A stretch of 64,000 nt of DNA from contig JAWCLW010000001.1 of assembly GCA_039091535.1 (NCBI GenBank), forward strand, positions 11,881 to 75,880, in the 5' to 3' direction. This DNA is from Candidatus Aenigmatarchaeota archaeon (GTDB lineage Archaea; Aenigmatarchaeota; Aenigmatarchaeia; GW2011-AR5). Shown here in pieces: positions 34,613 through 44,090 of this stretch. The notes under the pieces were generated by a model. It was given only the letters and a program-made list of their open reading frames with translations. It searched no databases and was not told the DNA's origin. The translations under genes were made by a program, and so were the position numbers. The stretch's first letter is position 1, and the number at the start of each line of letters is the position of its first letter.

Positions 34613-36589
34613 TCATACCTTTCTTAAATATCCTGGCCTTGGTTCAAAAATCACACCATCTTTTTTTAGTATATCTATAATCTCATCTATATCCTTTATC
34701 CCTTGGTTTTCTGCTTCTGCTTTAAGATCTTCAACTGCAACTTCATGTGCTTCTTTCTGTAATGATTCAAGTATATCTAGTATCAATGGAACTTTCCTAC
34801 GTCTGCTTGATGGAACACCACCATCCATACGATCTACATCAAAGCGTTTTGTTTCAAAATCGTAACCTAGTTGCATCATAGAATATCTCATTAACCTTAT
34901 TGCTCTTTCTGCATCCTCGACACGAACTTTTGTGTCTAATCTTACTTTTGCTGATGCTTCTGCAAGTCGTATTAATGCCTCATATTGTCTTAATGTTATG
35001 CTTATTGTAGGTGTTTCCTCACCACCATAAATATTTCTCATTTCAACATAGAATTTTTTTAATATATCAGCAGCCTCTTGTGTTAGTTCGATATCTTGTA
35101 TCTGTTTTGCATATGCTATATATTTTCTTAAAAGATTTATGTTTATCACAGGTTCGATACGCTCTGGACTCGTCCTTGACGTGATTATGTGATCTGCCAT
35201 TTTTTCGTCAGTTGTGATATCTGGCTTATCCCTTATTGCAAATTTGAGATCAAACCTCGAAAGTAATGTTTCTGGTATTAAAATTTGATCACCTATTGGT
35301 TTATATGGGTCAAACCTACCAAGTTTTGGATTTGCACCAGCAAGTATAGATGTTTGTGCCGGTAATGTTGCCACAATACTTGCTTTGGCGATGCTTACGG
35401 TTTCGACTGAAGTAGCCTCATGCATTGCTATTTGATCATCCTTACTCATTTTGTCAAACTCATCAATAGCAATCAAACCTTTGTTGCATAAAATTAATGC
35501 ACCTGCTTCAAGCACCCAACCACCTATTGCCTCGTTCTTCACAACAGTAGCAGTTAACCCAGCACCAGAAACACCCGAACCAGAAACATATTTCCCACGT
35601 GGTACAATAGAAGATATAAGTTTCAGGATTTGTGTTTTACCAACACCTGGATCACCTGTAAGCAAAATATGGATATTGCCTCTTATTCTTGTACCATCTG
35701 GCATTTTATGTGGTATGCCGCCAAACAATTGCAAAACAAGAGCCTCTTTTATTTCATCATAACCATATATGGTTGGTGCAATTGATGCCTTCAATTTTTC
35801 ATATATATCAGGGCTACTTGCAAGTTCTTTTATCATTCTTTCTTCTTCTGATGTTATTTCTAATTCCTCAAATTCTATGTCGCTTGGTTCAAAATAAATT
35901 GCATCCATATAAATATCCATTCTTGTACTTAGTTTTCCTTTTATACGTTTTGGTAATTCTTTTACTATGCCATATAATTTTATTCTATTCCCTGGATCAG
36001 ATTTTCTTTGCATGCGTGGGGTTGTTAATCCTTCTTTTAAAAAAATACTTATCTCACCAGGTCTTTCACCTGTTGTTAATTCAAAAGGCTCAACCCCGAC
36101 AAGCCATCGTATATCGTACATTTTCTTATCAATAAGAGGAAAATCACCACGCCTTCCACATTCGCATAAACCAGGTTTTTGTATTATATTTGTAGTCTGT
36201 GGAACTGTTATCTTTGCACTACACTCTGGACATTCAAATATTGCTTCGTAAATTTGTGGTTTCACTTCTGATGCTGATTTAATAATAGTATCTATACAAA
36301 AAAGCTTTCCAATGTGTTTTGCACGGAGATTTCTTATTCTTATCTGCCTGCTTGGTGGGAGATTCTTTATCCCGATTTCCATTTTTTCACCAGCGATGTT
36401 GCTAGCTGCTTTTTTAAGTGCGTCTATAACATTGTTCGGGTCCTCTAATAATTGGTCTGCAATTAGTGGATCAAACCTATCGAGTAAACTAAAATCGATA
36501 ACAATCAACCTTTCCTCTTTTGCTGCTTTGAGTATCTCTGTATGATATTTTTCACGCAAGAATTCGTCCAACCTATCAATTAATTCCAT
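34613..36589 (-). CDS. mcm: MCM replicative helicase
   Basis: C4 zinc finger CPECSAK...CECGRRG; Walker A GDPGVGKTQ; arginine finger SRFDL; C-terminal wH; 658 aa, no intein. Confidence 0.95.
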   Translation of the reverse strand: MELIDRLDEFLREKYHTEILKAAKEERLIVIDFSLLDRFDPLIADQLLEDPNNVIDALKKAASNIAGEKMEIGIKNLPPSRQIRIRNLRAKHIGKLFCIDTIIKSASEVKPQIYEAIFECPECSAKITVPQTTNIIQKPGLCECGRRGDFPLIDKKMYDIRWLVGVEPFELTTGERPGEISIFLKEGLTTPRMQRKSDPGNRIKLYGIVKELPKRIKGKLSTRMDIYMDAIYFEPSDIEFEELEITSEEERMIKELASSPDIYEKLKASIAPTIYGYDEIKEALVLQLFGGIPHKMPDGTRIRGNIHILLTGDPGVGKTQILKLISSIVPRGKYVSGSGVSGAGLTATVVKNEAIGGWVLEAGALILCNKGLIAIDEFDKMSKDDQIAMHEATSVETVSIAKASIVATLPAQTSILAGANPKLGRFDPYKPIGDQILIPETLLSRFDLKFAIRDKPDITTDEKMADHIITSRTSPERIEPVININLLRKYIAYAKQIQDIELTQEAADILKKFYVEMRNIYGGEETPTISITLRQYEALIRLAEASAKVRLDTKVRVEDAERAIRLMRYSMMQLGYDFETKRFDVDRMDGGVPSSRRRKVPLILDILESLQKEAHEVAVEDLKAEAENQGIKDIDEIIDILKKDGVIFEPRPGYLRKV

Positions 36590-36660: not shown

Positions 36661-37206
36661 TTATTTGTTTTTAAGAGATCTTAGTGTAGCCTCTAATTTT
36701 CTTACAGCTGCTTTCACAGCATCCATACTTTTTGCGCCTGCACAAACAACACGACCTGATGAGAATAATAGGAAGGCAACCTTTGGCTCATAAATTCTAT
36801 AAACTAATCCTGGAAATTGTTCTGGTTCATATTCACTATCCTCTAATTGGAATGCTAATTGATCAAGATTAAGTTCTTTACCAAGATTAACGGCAACAAC
36901 TATATTCTCTATTTTTACTTTTAGAGTATCTTCGTTGAATCTTATGCCAATCTTTTTTATGTTTTTTACAGTTTTTTTTAACGCCTCTTTTGCAGCTGCT
37001 GTGCTACGCGCACCAACACATATTATTTTTCCAGAACGAAATATTAATGTGGCAACCTTTGGCTCATCTAGACGATAAACAAGACCTGGAAACTGCTCTG
37101 GCTCATATTCACTTGCTTCCAAAACATTTAGAAGTTTGTCAAGCGATATTATTTTTTTTATGTCAGTAGAAGCAACAACATTTTCTATCTTTATTTTTTC
37201 TACCAT
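36661..37206 (-). CDS. tbp: TATA-box binding protein
   Basis: Two direct repeats (ENVVASTDI.../ENIVVAVNL..., PEQFPGLVYR twice); 181 aa. Confidence 0.95.
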   Translation of the reverse strand: MVEKIKIENVVASTDIKKIISLDKLLNVLEASEYEPEQFPGLVYRLDEPKVATLIFRSGKIICVGARSTAAAKEALKKTVKNIKKIGIRFNEDTLKVKIENIVVAVNLGKELNLDQLAFQLEDSEYEPEQFPGLVYRIYEPKVAFLLFSSGRVVCAGAKSMDAVKAAVRKLEATLRSLKNK

Positions 37207-37875: not shown

Positions 37876-38661
37876 GTGAAAAATATGAAAGAAATTAATG
37901 TTATATTCAAAAACAAGGGCCAAAAAATTATTGGCGTTTTACATATACCTAAAAAACAAAACCCACCAGCCATAGTAATGTGCCATGGTTTTACTGGAAA
38001 TAAAGGAGATATTCACAATAAACTTTATAAAGCTGCAAAAAAGTTCTGCGAAAATGGTTTCGTTGTTTTAAGGTTTGATTTTCGAGGTTCTGGAGAAAGT
38101 GAAGGAGAATTTGTGAATGTTACTATTAGTAGTGAAGTAAGTGATTTAAAAATTGCTATTGGTTTTATGCAAAAACAAGGTTATAAAAGAATTGGTGTAG
38201 TTGGTTCTAGCTTAGGTGGTACTATTTCTCTCATTGGTTTTAATGAAAGAATTAAAGCAATGGTTTTATGGAATCCTGTCACAAATTTAAGACAAACATT
38301 TATAGATTCAGATCTTATACCAAAAGAAAATGCACAAAGATTAGAAAAAAATGGGTTCATAATATTTAAAGATAATCGTACAGGAAAGGAATTTAAAATT
38401 GGTAAGAAGTTCTGGAAAGAAATTGAAACTTTAGATGTAGTTAAATATTTAAAAAGATTAAAATGTCCTGTATTAATTTTGCATGGTAATAAAGATACGG
38501 TCGTACCATTAAAACAATCAGAAAATGCCATGAAAATTATTGGGAGTGAGATTAAAGAACTCAGAATAATAAATGGAGCAGAACACGGATTTCATAAAGC
38601 ATCACACGAAAAACAAGTTATTGATTTGACTTTAAATTGGTTCAACAAATGGTTAAAATAA
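37876..38661 (+). CDS. Alpha/beta hydrolase (dienelactone hydrolase / peptidase S9-like)
   Basis: GxSxG nucleophile elbow GVVGSSLGG; C-terminal HGNKD and His. Confidence 0.75.
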   Translation: MKNMKEINVIFKNKGQKIIGVLHIPKKQNPPAIVMCHGFTGNKGDIHNKLYKAAKKFCENGFVVLRFDFRGSGESEGEFVNVTISSEVSDLKIAIGFMQKQGYKRIGVVGSSLGGTISLIGFNERIKAMVLWNPVTNLRQTFIDSDLIPKENAQRLEKNGFIIFKDNRTGKEFKIGKKFWKEIETLDVVKYLKRLKCPVLILHGNKDTVVPLKQSENAMKIIGSEIKELRIINGAEHGFHKASHEKQVIDLTLNWFNKWLK

Positions 38662-39087
38662 AAGTAACTGAGGCGGTGATAATTATGCAAAAAAGATCCA
38701 AATTCCAGAGTGTTTATCACAACTTCGGAAAAGGCATTTTGAGAATTGTATCATTTCCAAATCCAACTGCAAAAAGAATTATGCAAAAGATACAAGGGCT
38801 TGTTGAAACAAATTTTGACGGTTATGAAACATGAAGAGGCAACAAAACAAGAATAAGGCTTGCAGAAATTCAAGCGATTACTTATGTCAGTATACAGACC
38901 ATAGGTGCAGAATAACATAAAAAGACGGTAATAAAAATGATGTCTTTTAAACCAAAATTATTTGTTAGATTTAGTTTTCCTTTATAGAATTTTTTCTAAC
39001 AATTTCTCTTTTAAGAAATTAAATGAATATCTTTTAATTTTAAATTCTAATATATTTAAGTTTGAGTTTAATCTTCAAAAAGCAATT

Positions 39088-40023
39088 TTAAACTAAGTTT
39101 AAAAGTTCCTCTAGATTTTTATATCCTATCTTTTCTAAAGTTGATGCATCGAAATTCAGTCTTCTGAAAGTTTCTATTTGTTCGCTATAATCTGCTACTG
39201 GAAAATCAGTCCCAAAAATTAATTTGTCTGCACCGATATAATCTATAAGCAACTCGTAGACAGTTTGCGCAGAATCAACTAACCTAAAATTCCCTCTAGA
39301 TTTTGTTTTGTCATAAAATTGACTAGCTGCACTTGTATCCACATATACATTTTCTATTTGTCTAATTTTTTTAAGTACCTCTTCATCAAGACCAGCGCAA
39401 TGTGCAATAATAAATTTTGCTTTTGGATGAGAAGTTGCTACTTTCAATATATCATGTGAGAATCTGAATTGAAATGGGTCAAACAAAACACATAGGTCAT
39501 AATCTTCAATTACGTTTATAAGTTCACTATCTATCAATTCTTTAGGGTCATAAAAAGTTGCAACAAGATGGATTTTGATTCCTCGTATATCTTTTGAAGT
39601 TTTGACAAGTTTTTCTAAATACCTACTACTTTTTGGATATCTTGGATCGATTATTGGAAATGGGAATAGTCTGTTTGGGTATTTTGTTGCAGCCTTAATT
39701 AATAAATCATTTTTTCTGATATAGGGATTTCTTTTTACTTTCCATATTGTTTCACAGACTGGACATTGTAACGTATAAGAAGTTTTTTCTTTTTTGAGAA
39801 GGATTGGTGGCTTATTGAGATTGTCACATATTTTGTATTCAGGACAAACAATAGAACGTGTCGTTACGCCCGGTATGATTATTGCTTTTTTCACATTATT
39901 TTTTTCCATCGCCTGAATTAGATCTTCAGCATAAAAAGTTCGATATAAATTTCCTTTAACTCTTGAATAAAAATCTGGTCCAATATGTGTATGGCTGTCA
40001 AATAATTCAATTTCATTCAGCAT
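39088..40023 (-). CDS. Amidohydrolase-2 family TIM-barrel metal-dependent hydrolase with an inserted Zn ribbon
   Basis: N-terminal DSHTHIG metal-binding motif; insert CPEYKICDN...CPVCETIW; overlaps the upstream rSAM gene by 11 nt. Confidence 0.65.
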   Translation of the reverse strand: MLNEIELFDSHTHIGPDFYSRVKGNLYRTFYAEDLIQAMEKNNVKKAIIIPGVTTRSIVCPEYKICDNLNKPPILLKKEKTSYTLQCPVCETIWKVKRNPYIRKNDLLIKAATKYPNRLFPFPIIDPRYPKSSRYLEKLVKTSKDIRGIKIHLVATFYDPKELIDSELINVIEDYDLCVLFDPFQFRFSHDILKVATSHPKAKFIIAHCAGLDEEVLKKIRQIENVYVDTSAASQFYDKTKSRGNFRLVDSAQTVYELLIDYIGADKLIFGTDFPVADYSEQIETFRRLNFDASTLEKIGYKNLEELLNLV

Positions 40024-41296
40024 TTGAATTACCTTGAGAGACTCTCCAAATCCTAATTATTGCATCCCTTATTATACCTTTTCTGATATTACAAAGATAC
40101 TTATCTACTTTATATGGGTCTCCAGTTGTTAGGGAATTATGAACAGGGCAACCACCACAACATATATATTTTGCAAAACAATCATTGCATTCCTTCATAT
40201 AATCCACAGAATGTTTGATTAATTTATATATTTTGAGTGGTTGATATTCAAATTTATCTTCATCCTCATTATATTTACCCACTAAAAATAGGTCAGAAAG
40301 TGGTGTATTTTCATTTTGTATTTCTAAACAAAAAGTTATTTTACCTTCAGGTGTAACCATAAGTCTTCCTCCATGTGATGAGAAACAAAACTGTTTAGAG
40401 GGATTTAGCAAAAAAAATAAACTAGATTCAGTCACTTTCATGCTATATTTTTTGGCCATGTCTAGTGCCTTCTTAAAGTTTGTCACATAATCTTTTGTTT
40501 TTGGTCTTAAATATTCTTTTCCTGTACCCCGTCCAGAAGGTGTAAAAGATTCAAAATGAACACATTCTATACCTAATTGATTAAAATACTCTATTATTTC
40601 ACTCATTCTATTTACAGAATAACTAGTAATTGTTGTTCGAGCTTTGAGATCGCATCCAGCATCAATTATTTTTTTTATAGTTTTTTCCACAATAGGATAA
40701 GAAGGTTTATTATTAGGTGCTGGTCTTTGATAGTTCTGAATATCTGGTGGCCCATCAATTGAAACAAAAAATAAAAAATTATTTTTTATTAAGAAATTTA
40801 ACTTTTTGTTATTCATCACACAATTTGTCGTTACTTCAAATATGGGTTCTACACTTGTATTATTTAAAACATAGTTAATTGTCGATTCTATACATCTGAA
40901 ATTCATGGTAGGTTCTCCACCAAAAAAATACAAATGAAGTTTTTTTGAATTAGGTTTTAAAACCTCTTTAACAGAACGTATAGCTAACTTTTCACTCATA
41001 TATAATGCACTTTCGCCACCTCTTGCAAAACAGTATATACAACGCAAATTACAATCTGAGGTGGTTAAAAGGGTAAGTCTTTCTTCTCCTTTTTTATATC
41101 TCGTTAATATCTTTGGAGTACCAAAAAATCCTTCCCTTTCTAATTGTTTTTTAACATTTTCGTTATTAATCTGTTGTTTAGTAAGAGATGCTATTTTGCC
41201 AACATACGGTGAGAAAACGATAAAATTTTTACCTTCTACAACACAAGGCAATCCATTATATAGCAATTCTTTTAATTTCTTAGATTGATTTTTCAT
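40013..41296 (-). CDS. Radical SAM enzyme with C-terminal SPASM domain and ~85-aa N-terminal RRE-like extension
   Basis: CNLRCIYCF (Cx3Cx2C); SPASM ECNDCFAKYICCGGCP (Cx2Cx5Cx3C) plus upstream auxiliary Cys; the N-terminal beta-beta-alpha segment before the rSAM core is consistent with a RiPP recognition element. Confidence 0.8.
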   Translation of the reverse strand: MKNQSKKLKELLYNGLPCVVEGKNFIVFSPYVGKIASLTKQQINNENVKKQLEREGFFGTPKILTRYKKGEERLTLLTTSDCNLRCIYCFARGGESALYMSEKLAIRSVKEVLKPNSKKLHLYFFGGEPTMNFRCIESTINYVLNNTSVEPIFEVTTNCVMNNKKLNFLIKNNFLFFVSIDGPPDIQNYQRPAPNNKPSYPIVEKTIKKIIDAGCDLKARTTITSYSVNRMSEIIEYFNQLGIECVHFESFTPSGRGTGKEYLRPKTKDYVTNFKKALDMAKKYSMKVTESSLFFLLNPSKQFCFSSHGGRLMVTPEGKITFCLEIQNENTPLSDLFLVGKYNEDEDKFEYQPLKIYKLIKHSVDYMKECNDCFAKYICCGGCPVHNSLTTGDPYKVDKYLCNIRKGIIRDAIIRIWRVSQGNSNAE

Positions 41297-41336
41297 TGTT
41301 CCTCATAGAATTATAAAAAGATAAAAAATAAAAAGT

Positions 41337-41471
41337 TTAATCCTGAGCACATTCAAGACCATTGAGTACTCTTTTATATTTTTCAAACTTTTCATACTTA
41401 GAAGGTCTTGTACCTATTTCTTCTGGCAATACTATTTTATATATTTTAATACTTTTTAATATTTCATTCAT
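41337..41471 (-). CDS. Candidate 44-aa precursor/leader-like peptide (MNEILKSIKIYKIVLPEEIGTRPSKYEKFEKYKRVLNGLECAQD) immediately upstream of the rSAM/SPASM gene
   Basis: Absent from the ORF track; same strand; stop 38 nt before the rSAM ATG; AT-rich TATA-like stretch 25-30 nt upstream; single Cys near the C-terminus. Confidence 0.3.
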   Translation of the reverse strand: MNEILKSIKIYKIVLPEEIGTRPSKYEKFEKYKRVLNGLECAQD

Positions 41472-41779
41472 AACTTAATAATAAATACTAAAAATATTTA
41501 AATTTATCACTTGGTTTATGAATATTTTTTAATTATAATTTTTATAGATTCAAAACTAATTTCAATGGTCTTATATATAACCTGCTCTACAAAATAAAGT
41601 CAAAAATAAAAACTAATTTTTCAAATTACTACATAAATTATTTATTTTACCATTGGTCCACACAAAATAACAAAAAGTATAACAAATAATTAAATTAATG
41701 CATCGTTAAGATGATATAATTGATAATAATGAAGTTAGATGTGGATTAAACTTAAATTTTTAATACTTAATTTTTATTA

Positions 41780-42643
41780 ATGATGAAAATAGAAAAGTTA
41801 GACAAAAAATTAAAAGAAAGATTACGAGAATATTTGATGCAGGACTTTAGTAAAAATGCGATTTATCTTTATGATTTAGATAAAGAATATCCAAAGAGAG
41901 CTGATTTTTCTGTTTTGTTACAAAATGAAAAAATAAAAGGATTTAATGTTATTTGGATGGATAATCCTAATTTTTGTTATTTACATATCATAGCAGAAGA
42001 CGAAGAATCTTTCTTAGAGTTACTTAAAAATTCCAAAAGTCATCTTGAGAAGGCAAAACGTCTTATTATATCATCAGAATTTTCATCGATATTGGAAAAT
42101 GAATTCAGTCTTGTTGGTGATCATATGAATTTAATGTCTCTTACTAAAGGTAATGAAAAATTAGAAATAAAACATCCTGTTAGAAGATTGCAACATGAAG
42201 ATTTACCATATATTATAGAACTCTTAAAAGAAGGCACAAATTTGTATGTTAAAGATAATGATGTGAGAAATGGTATTCTTAAATCAGTTGAAAACTCAAT
42301 TGATAAAGGGTTATTTTTTGGTTGTTTTATTAACAATGAATTAGTATCTTTTATTCGTACTACAATATCATATCCACCGATAACTATGATAGATACACTA
42401 TATACGAAAAAAGTTTTGCAAAGAAGTGGGGCTGGTCAATCTGTTACATCTGGTTTAATTAAAGAATTGTTTTATAATAGAAGCGAGTTTAATGAAATAC
42501 AATTATATGAAGAAAAGAAAAATTTACCAGCCTTCAATCTTTATACTAAACTTGGATTTAAGGTACTAAAAGAATATATAAGATACAATATAACAGGCAT
42601 TAGTTTCAATTGTCGGTATTATTTATTATTAGGGGGTCTGTGA
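41780..42643 (+). CDS. Two-domain GNAT-family N-acetyltransferase
   Basis: C-terminal GNAT signature (LQRSGAGQSVTSGLI...AFNLYTKLGF); N-terminal domain unclassified. Confidence 0.65.
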   Translation: MMKIEKLDKKLKERLREYLMQDFSKNAIYLYDLDKEYPKRADFSVLLQNEKIKGFNVIWMDNPNFCYLHIIAEDEESFLELLKNSKSHLEKAKRLIISSEFSSILENEFSLVGDHMNLMSLTKGNEKLEIKHPVRRLQHEDLPYIIELLKEGTNLYVKDNDVRNGILKSVENSIDKGLFFGCFINNELVSFIRTTISYPPITMIDTLYTKKVLQRSGAGQSVTSGLIKELFYNRSEFNEIQLYEEKKNLPAFNLYTKLGFKVLKEYIRYNITGISFNCRYYLLLGGL

Positions 42644-43688: not shown

Positions 43689-44090
43689 ATGAAACTAAAA
43701 GGTGTATATATTTTATTAATTAGTATTGCTAAAGATATACGAATAAATATAGGCTCATTAGGAAAAATAAAATTTTCTGCAGGTAATTATGTATATGTTG
43801 GTTCCGCACAAAATAATATTATGAAAAGAATTGAAAGACATAAATCAAAAACAAAAAATAAATTTTGGCATATTGATTATTTGCTTGATAGTAAATATGC
43901 AAAAATTTTAAAGATATTTTACAAGGAATCAAAAAAATCTGAAGAATGTAGAATTGCAAATAGATTATTAAAAAATGAAATTTTAATTAAAAATTTTGGT
44001 TGTTCTGATTGCAATTGTAAATCGCATTTATTCAAAATCAAAAACATAAAAAATATTTTGAAATTAGGTATGAAAATTTATAAATGGTGA
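43689..44090 (+). CDS. DUF123 (GIY-YIG superfamily) protein
   Basis: KGVYILL...GSLG...AGNYVYVGSA...HKSK...KFWHIDYLL pattern. Confidence 0.65.
   Translation: MKLKGVYILLISIAKDIRINIGSLGKIKFSAGNYVYVGSAQNNIMKRIERHKSKTKNKFWHIDYLLDSKYAKILKIFYKESKKSEECRIANRLLKNEILIKNFGCSDCNCKSHLFKIKNIKNILKLGMKIYKW

Follow-up and report, generated by a model that had tools for sequence, protein, structure and literature searches.

The 64,000-nucleotide stretch of Candidatus Aenigmatarchaeota DNA analyzed here (the window) carries at positions 39088-41471 a cassette of three minus-strand open reading frames (ORFs), all read in the same direction, which code for a peptide of 44 residues, a radical S-adenosylmethionine (rSAM) enzyme of 427 residues with a SPASM domain and an amidohydrolase of 311 residues. 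The 44-residue ORF is a genuine gene that serves as dedicated partner to the rSAM/SPASM gene next to it, the two being inherited together across DPANN archaea and bacteria of the Candidate Phyla Radiation (CPR). The assignment of the cassette to the biosynthesis of a peptide made on the ribosome and modified after translation (RiPP), with the small ORF coding the substrate of the rSAM/SPASM enzyme, is strongly supported. An earlier reading of the DNA letters and their translations (the original prediction) had put forward a RiPP-like cassette, and this proposal is sustained by the co-conservation of the two genes across phyla, the lack of a sulfatase gene in the window and a poor score against anaerobic sulfatase-maturating enzymes (anSME). 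The reading favored here, with a probability of about 0.55, is that of a minimal thioether (ranthipeptide-like) RiPP operon whose product would carry a single Cys41-Asp44 ring and might undergo later processing.

The peptide has orthologs beside rSAM orthologs in L001-L006, L007, L087, L088, L089, L092, L173 and L175 (L numbers designate loci), and the pair is present in DPANN archaea, Patescibacteria and one Nitrospirae metagenome-assembled genome (MAG), with 11 non-redundant loci in all. A small ORF lies directly upstream of the rSAM gene where the enzymes share 88%, 73% and 51% identity with that of the window; the three ORFs align to the window peptide with the pattern ...IK(M/L)PxEIGxxP...LEC[AN][QD]D-stop. 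The pairing is also kept at 44%, 40% and 36% rSAM identity, its hosts being Aenigmatarchaeota, Patescibacteria, Nomurabacteria and Nitrospirae. The peptide gene of the Nomurabacteria locus L007 is found downstream of the rSAM gene, and since adjacency is maintained while the peptide gene switches sides of the enzyme gene a chance ORF is excluded. Ratios of nonsynonymous to synonymous substitution rates between orthologs (0.18-0.58) denote purifying selection, and the last seven residues of the peptide are invariant within the clade. The original prediction had pointed to the ORF and proposed to look for its co-conservation in related genomes; this check establishes it as a real gene. Its product is identical to a protein deposited from a Candidatus Aenigmatarchaeota MAG (P0122), and the amidohydrolase is likewise identical to a deposited protein. 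A search of the protein database with the peptide profile returned five close copies only, small ORFs being rarely called, and none of the peptides matched a curated precursor family.

The peptide can be divided into a leader and a short core. The leader motif V-L-P-E-E-I-G follows the family pattern hydrophobic-hydrophobic-P-x-E-[ILV], its Pro is the sole invariant column of the peptide alignment, and the motif is a putative site of recognition or binding. The core sequence GLECAQD is identical in the window, L001 and L002-4, and reads LECNDD in L005. The more distant peptides end with LECWGC-stop (L087, L092, L173), KTLDCFD-stop (L175), GRVASCDD-stop (L007), EEMCED-stop (L089) and, probably, RMCPD-stop (L088). 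The Cys is found 2-3 residues before the C-terminus in all single-Cys peptides. The original prediction had described an atypical single-Cys peptide rich in Lys and Tyr: the single Cys stands, but the Lys/Tyr-rich stretch is the variable leader and not the core. Note that in two contigs from sample Ga0209225 (L090, ~1536-1650, and L091) codon 20 of the precursor gene reads TAA where L004 has GAA, and that the rSAM ORF of L091 is shorter as well; this nonsense change may mean that the system is decaying in one natural population, or else that the two contigs have a sequencing error in common.

The chemistry is suggested by more distant members of the family. Where the rSAM reaches 300-400 bits with the family profile, the locus codes for peptides with the same leader motif (VLPEEL in L116, ITPEEL in L118) and with multi-Cys cores such as GPCSGDDCNSDSGGCTHDASCGQDC. 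An Asp occupies position +3 of 37 of the 65 Cys (57%) in ten non-redundant cores; shuffled sequences give 11.1 ± 2.8 (17%) and 0 of 2000 shuffles reach 37. The core C-A-Q-D-stop of the window peptide amounts to precisely one C-x-x-D unit, and it has what characterizes a ranthipeptide-type precursor, namely a Cys with a downstream acceptor encoded beside an rSAM/SPASM gene. The original prediction had envisaged a new class of modification. This is not borne out: the cores of the relatives consist of C-x-x-D repeats, and PapB and QhpD, which come nearest among named enzymes, both form Cys-Asp/Glu thioethers. PapB, which makes such bonds, tolerates C-Xn-D spacings with n = 0-6 (PMC9413430) and is also able to join Cys to a C-terminal residue, its 5'-deoxyadenosyl radical abstracting a hydrogen before a cluster-bound thiolate captures the carbon radical (PMC12373016). 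The C-x-x-D relatives together with the PapB precedent therefore lead to the prediction of a single Cys41-Asp44 thioether, which is the likeliest product. The coupling of Cys to a C-terminal residue by PapB would accommodate the LECWGC-stop variants too.

The maturase belongs to the radical SAM superfamily (PF04055, 52.5 bits for a gathering cut-off of 29.5). Its CX3CX2C triad and its SPASM motif, both called in the original prediction, are conserved in 43 homologs: C82-x3-C86-x2-C89 is invariant and the layout C304-x13-G318-x4-C323...C370-x2-C373-x5-C379-x3-C383...C402 is invariant or nearly so. The Pfam SPASM model (PF13186) gave no report at E ≤ 0.01 for the window enzyme, which is a SPASM protein by motif and by modeled structure. 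A database search found 195 homologs at E ≤ 1e-10, all unnamed, in a family of ~200 sequences; where named, their sources are Aenigmatarchaeota, Patescibacteria/Paceibacterota, a Nitrospirae MAG and a Ferruginibacter. A family motif, S-x-DGPPxIQNxQRP, sets these enzymes apart from generic SPASM proteins. The pattern DGPP[DN]IQ[ND], taken from a narrowed sub-alignment, retrieved 80 metagenomic loci; a contig scan with the full rSAM alignment, based on the generic pattern CNLxCxYC, recovered mostly unrelated SPASM enzymes and only L007 was useful. Every curated peptide-maturase model of NCBIfam matched the window enzyme far below its cut-off, the top one being rSAM_nif11 (139 bits). The enzyme does not classify as PapB (NF047865: 134.6 bits, and 126-170 bits for seven relatives; cut-off 340). 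Among these seven relatives PapB was the top model for six and QhpD (TIGR03906: 80-131 bits; cut-off 453) for L099. The AlphaFold 2 (AF2) model of the enzyme (mean predicted local distance difference test score, pLDDT, of 94.3) matches best in Foldseek the thioether-forming CteB (5WHY: E 5e-21, template modeling (TM) score 0.72 over ~445 columns), followed by anSME; TigE, ChlB and SuiB also match structurally. CteB is the closest solved structure by sequence as well (E 4.8e-17, 20% identity), in an alignment that begins at residue 72.

Residues preceding this alignment form a small N-terminal domain that the original prediction had put at ~85 residues and likened to a RiPP recognition element (RRE); its actual length is ~70 residues. 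The model of residues 11-54 has four strands (11-13, 16-21, 24-29, 34-38) and two short helices (40-43, 46-54), different from the three strands and three helices of an RRE, and the domain is conserved as GLP...IvFSPy...kIA...LxxxGFFG in the 43 homologs. The RRE assignment failed throughout: none of 27 family N-termini matched Pfam PqqD/RRE (PF05402) at E ≤ 10, hhalign reached a probability of 0.9% with the separately encoded PqqD proteins of L126 and L159, and a profile search of PDB sequences with the domain returned repeat-protein artefacts only. The domain is equivalent to the RRE of CteB in position only; it may bind the leader and, as modeled, is a candidate module for this role rather than a canonical RRE. 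Note that in L126 (652-1056) and L159 (3-395) a stand-alone PqqD protein (PF05402, E 8e-9) is encoded directly upstream of the family rSAM, which keeps its fused N-terminal domain; the leader may be recognized by a separate RRE in members of this type.

The third gene codes for an Amidohydro_2-type TIM-barrel partner, as had been predicted (PF04909, 83.6 bits; cut-off 26.4). Its AF2 model (pLDDT 93.8) matches the fold of family members with a TM score of ~0.67. Conserved residues are an HxH (H11, H13), K150 in strand 4, H/D182 in strand 5, H208 in strand 6 and D273 in strand 8; binuclear hydrolases, dihydroorotase among them, bind their metals with the set HxH/K/H/H/D. The strand-5 ligand at residue 182 (window 39478-39480) is His in at least 90% of the subfamily and Asp in the window protein and the two proteins closest to it (P0127 and P0129), a possible change in the metal site judging from the alignment. 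The predicted zinc ribbon is indeed an inserted four-Cys, ribbon-like element (modeled strands 74-78, 83-86 and 93-96), though with the pattern C60-x5-C66...C87-x2-C90 instead of CxxC...CxxC; C60, C87 and C90 hardly vary across 31 relatives. The subfamily is rare, with 576 matches at E ≤ 1e-3 and seven at E ≤ 1e-30 among 1.84 billion representatives. In L171 (1-5933) a distant member (29% identity) is preceded upstream by three radical SAM genes of other kinds (one SPASM-type, one HemN-like, one an rSAM-NUDIX fusion) and by a gene whose protein matches the PEP-utilizers domain (PF00391) weakly.

An Amidohydro_2 gene lies 0-750 bp from the rSAM gene in six non-redundant single-Cys loci. The zinc-ribbon subtype is found in the window, L001, L002 and L006, and a second subtype in L007 and L175. 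The two enzymes of this second subtype are orthologous (E 3e-32), show only family-level similarity to the window enzyme and lack the insertion, which is also absent from a 236-residue paralog in L006; two subtypes have thus been recruited. Note that single-sequence phmmer missed the second subtype, for which a profile was needed. A profile search of all loci found Amidohydro_2 in 0 of 24 multi-Cys loci, and the amidohydrolase was rejected as a family-wide partner. The predicted partnership consequently holds to the extent that it recurs in three lineages of the single-Cys branch. Genes for an amidohydrolase and a GNAT-fold acetyltransferase accompany no other branch, which suggests that they may act in processing after the crosslink. 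Removal of the follower from a YcaO-modified peptide by the amidohydrolase PurAH/BotAH of bottromycin biosynthesis (PMC7136475) provides a precedent for a processing role, the PF04909 enzyme of the window, with its four-Cys insertion, being likened to it by role only.

A sequence of events compatible with the favored thioether reading can be proposed. The leader motif would dock on the small N-terminal β-domain of the enzyme, and the Cys41 thiol would bind an open iron site of auxiliary cluster I, the family having seven, not eight, SPASM Cys, as in CteB. A 5'-deoxyadenosyl radical from the CX3CX2C cluster would then abstract hydrogen from the C-terminal Asp44, most likely at its β-carbon as in PapB and QhpD, and the Cys sulfur would capture the carbon radical, so closing a thioether ring over the four final residues C-A-Q-D of the peptide, with a net change of -2 Da. 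More tentatively, the translationally coupled, binuclear-type Amidohydro_2 enzyme of the single-Cys branch might cut off the leader or hydrolyze some other amide, and the neighboring GNAT might N-acylate the product, leaving a small capped thioether peptide.

Several observations weigh against this scheme. The chemistry is deduced from homology at 20-30% identity and all curated maturase models are missed widely, that of PapB with 135 bits for 340. Three single-Cys peptides end with LECWGC, without Asp after the first Cys, so that the acceptor is possibly not an Asp side chain, and the conserved Glu before Cys is not accounted for. That the leader docks on the N-terminal domain is a supposition only, since the domain has no RRE match and some family members have a separate PqqD. 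The solved folds nearest to the amidohydrolase are ACMSD/LigW-type decarboxylases (13-16% identity), not peptidases. The available sequence of L088, L089 and L173 holds no Amidohydro_2 gene. The zinc-ribbon subtype occurs without rSAM in L172 and with only a GNAT gene next to it in L170, and was on these grounds rejected as an rSAM-specific partner. Finally, four of the six amidohydrolase-positive loci belong to one Aenigmatarchaeota clade, leaving approximately three independent events.

The same peptide might undergo a different rSAM reaction, such as an α-carbon (sactipeptide) thioether, a Cys-Glu40 link, epimerization, formation of formylglycine by oxidation of Cys or an oxidative decarboxylation at the C-terminus. 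SPASM enzymes of this fold, including the structural matches listed above from CteB to SuiB, catalyze many reactions; together with the missed cut-off of every curated family, the LECWGC variants lacking Asp and the Glu/Asp that directly precedes Cys in most single-Cys peptides, this gives the alternative some ground. It is held to be unlikely, since the C-x-x-D periodicity of the relatives indicates Cys-Asp pairing, the top named profiles are those of Cys-Asp/Glu thioether synthases and the anSME motif C/S-x-P/A-x-R cannot be read in the peptide. An anSME, or another protein-modifying SPASM enzyme whose substrate is encoded elsewhere, with the small ORF and the amidohydrolase as mere neighbors, is a very improbable explanation. 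The rank of anSME as second-best structural match and the E-value of 1e-26 for TIGR03942 would speak for it, and the anSME structures (PDB 4K36-4K39) have the rSAM and SPASM folds in common with the window enzyme; the latter has the additional N-terminal domain, and no C/S-x-P-x-R sequence is found. The TIGR03942 score is 93.7 bits, far from the cut-off of 349, none of the 64 window ORFs of at least 150 residues has a sulfatase signature, as the original prediction had noted for the vicinity, and in different phyla the small ORF varies together with the enzyme, upstream or downstream yet always adjacent, by which this explanation is effectively refuted.

Two further alternatives, both regarded as less likely than a different reaction on the peptide, take the peptide as the origin of a small compound. 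Mycofactocin (MftA/MftB/MftC/MftE) offers a model, in which a short peptide with an invariant C-terminus is acted upon there by a SPASM rSAM and subsequently by a metal-dependent hydrolase. Following this logic, or that of pyrroloquinoline quinone (PQQ), the peptide would be the scaffold of a small-molecule or cofactor pathway: the rSAM would modify C-terminal residues, the amidohydrolase would excise a fragment, the GNAT would acylate it and the product would be a small metabolite. This is quite unlikely, even if many features fit: only the last residues are invariant, with a reactive Cys fixed 2-3 residues from the C-terminus; metal hydrolase and acyltransferase recur in the single-site branch only; the ORF list and the Pfam scan show neither a protease nor an exporter in the cassette; the system is kept in organisms with very small genomes; and several loci have aminoacyl-tRNA synthetase genes and a LPG_synthase_C-type gene nearby. 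It is opposed by the absence of MftC and PqqE from the 25 best NCBIfam matches listed, by the resemblance of relatives with many C-x-x-D repeats to ordinary multi-ring RiPPs, by the several single-Cys loci that have no amidohydrolase and by the nonsense mutation of the precursor in one natural population, contrary to what is expected for an essential cofactor. The cassette does not belong to the mycofactocin group: there is no PqqD-family gene beside it and no RRE protein of its own in the window, its hydrolase is of the Amidohydro_2 type and not creatininase-fold, and its peptide ends with ECAQD rather than GVY. A combination of this idea with the thioether ring, still more speculative and doubtful, is a four-gene pathway (peptide, rSAM, binuclear-type amidohydrolase and GNAT) that excises and N-acylates a tiny thioether-bridged C-terminal fragment to generate a new small peptide-derived metabolite or cofactor of ultra-small DPANN archaea and CPR bacteria. 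If true, it would possibly be the first natural macrocyclization of Cys to a C-terminal residue, known so far only for PapB in vitro.

Returning to the favored Cys-Asp thioether, the closest known system is PapB/PapA (freyrasin) of Paenibacillus polymyxa, with which it has the Cys-Asp thioether logic in common and whose PapB model ranks first in NCBIfam for the majority of family members. The two differ in spacing (C-x3-D native to PapA, C-x2-D here), in the number and place of sites (six internal sites in PapA, one at the extreme C-terminus of the window peptide), in leader recognition (PapB is described with an RRE, the ~70-residue domain of the window enzyme has no RRE signature), in host (an archaeon and CPR bacteria here) and in the Amidohydro_2 and GNAT partners. 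CteB/CteA (thermocellin) of Clostridium thermocellum (PDB 5WGG/5WHY) is the best solved match. In CteB the Cys of the substrate binds to an open site of auxiliary cluster I, and the acceptor in CteA is the γ-carbon of Thr, not Asp. The RRE region of CteB has no sequence counterpart in the window enzyme because the alignment starts after it. QhpD/QhpC is also an rSAM/SPASM system, with Cys-Asp and Cys-Glu thioethers formed within one peptide; its substrate QhpC is an enzyme subunit (the γ-subunit of quinohemoprotein amine dehydrogenase) encoded in the qhp operon, and no qhp operon gene was found among the window ORFs or by their Pfam scan.

Neither the class of the enzyme nor its probable chemistry is new; what is new is the family, its design with one ring at the C-terminus, its truncated N-terminal domain, its host organisms and its accessory genes. 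Literature on Patescibacteria, DPANN and Aenigmatarchaeota yielded only bulk antiSMASH-type counts of 'ranthipeptide' clusters for archaea and CPR; neither the family nor its C-x-x-D precursors or partners were found described. Validated archaeal RiPPs are haloarchaeal lanthipeptides only, archaeal rSAM RiPPs being still predictions (2025 survey, PMC12144867). A 44-residue, one-Cys peptide and a single enzyme make the cassette a very small and clearly delimited test case. If the C-terminal Cys-Asp ring is true, peptide engineering would have, besides PapB, a minimal thioether staple enzyme of natural origin, a whole family of uncharacterized precursors would come under the C-x-x-D rule and an entry would be gained to the role of such peptides in organisms whose genomes are extremely reduced. 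A new route of maturation may be represented by the amidohydrolase and GNAT partners, which recur.

The cassette lies in an AT-rich context (window GC ~29%), close to archaeal replication and transcription genes; ORFs 34613-36589 and 36661-37206 are read as MCM and TBP by their own sequences. Its organization differs in detail from the original prediction: the overlap of 11 nt between the rSAM and amidohydrolase genes, where the start of the latter covers the stop of the former, is confirmed, the gap between peptide and rSAM genes is 40 nt and not 38, and the AT-rich upstream region is 308 bp long and not 480. The spacer with its GAGGA sequence is consistent with co-transcription of peptide and enzyme. 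The 308-bp region is the presumed promoter region of both the peptide operon and the divergent GNAT gene, and a TTTAAATATTT stretch is found in it ~20-32 nt ahead of the peptide ATG. In the window (37876-42643) the three-gene cassette is inverted between an alpha/beta-hydrolase gene and the GNAT gene, which shows its genes to be mobile as one block.

Table 1. Features of the cassette and its divergent neighbor in window coordinates.
Feature	Position	Strand	Basis
Amidohydro_2 TIM-barrel metal hydrolase, 311 aa, candidate processing enzyme	39088..40023	-	PF04909 E 2.6e-23
Inserted four-Cys, three-stranded zinc-ribbon-like element, C60/C66/C87/C90	39733..39861	-	alignment and model
Radical SAM/SPASM peptide maturase, 427 aa, unnamed family	40013..41296	-	Pfam Radical_SAM E 8e-14
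SPASM domain, seven Cys C304/C323/C370/C373/C379/C383/C402, two auxiliary [4Fe-4S] clusters	40091..40387	-	alignment, structural match
CX3CX2C radical-SAM cluster motif, C82/C86/C89	41030..41053	-	alignment of 43 homologs
N-terminal domain of the maturase, ~70 aa	41087..41296	-	AF2 secondary structure, conservation
Spacer between peptide and rSAM genes, 40 nt, GAGGA 5 nt before rSAM ATG	41297..41336	-	sequence read
Precursor peptide gene, 44 aa, MNEILKSIKIYKIVLPEEIGTRPSKYEKFEKYKRVLNGLECAQD	41337..41471	-	ORF; orthologs beside rSAM orthologs
Core L-E-C41-A-Q-D44-stop, predicted single Cys-Asp thioether site	41340..41357	-	conservation and C-x-x-D enrichment
Leader motif V-L-P-E-E-I-G, residues 14-20	41412..41432	-	family pattern hydrophobic-hydrophobic-P-x-E-[ILV]
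Divergent intergenic region, 308 bp, 16.9% GC	41472..41779	.	sequence read
GNAT-fold acetyltransferase, 287 aa, divergent, possible tailoring partner	41780..42643	+	PF00583 E 2.9e-8

Orthologs of the GNAT are encoded in L001, L002, L006 and L170, each time near the amidohydrolase. An unrelated GNAT gene is placed between the rSAM and Amidohydro_2 genes of L175, and in L007 a LPG_synthase_C-family gene and a Peptidase_S51 gene are next to the amidohydrolase gene; the LPG_synthase_C family has a GNAT fold of the aminoacyl-tRNA-dependent transferase kind. Aminoacyl-tRNA synthetase genes often flank the rSAM-peptide pair (L007, 4685-6004 and 9185-11001; L087, 3785-4795; L173, 4750-5607; L088, 5455-6885) and also flank the zinc-ribbon amidohydrolase of L172 (5894-10417). 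This adjacency, which appears unusually frequent, may simply reflect small genomes. Genes for a polyprenyl synthase and for a radical SAM protein that binds B12 separate the cassette from the GNAT gene in L002 (6001-8189) and L001 (2606-4795); following the cassette in L001-L004 and absent from the window and other loci, they were rejected as parts of the system. An ORF of 133 residues similar to DUF123/GIY-YIG proteins (PF01986, E 1e-29) is located 1 kb beyond the GNAT gene of the window (43689-44090), and a GIY-YIG-like gene is found near the cassette of L002 too (1334-1663).

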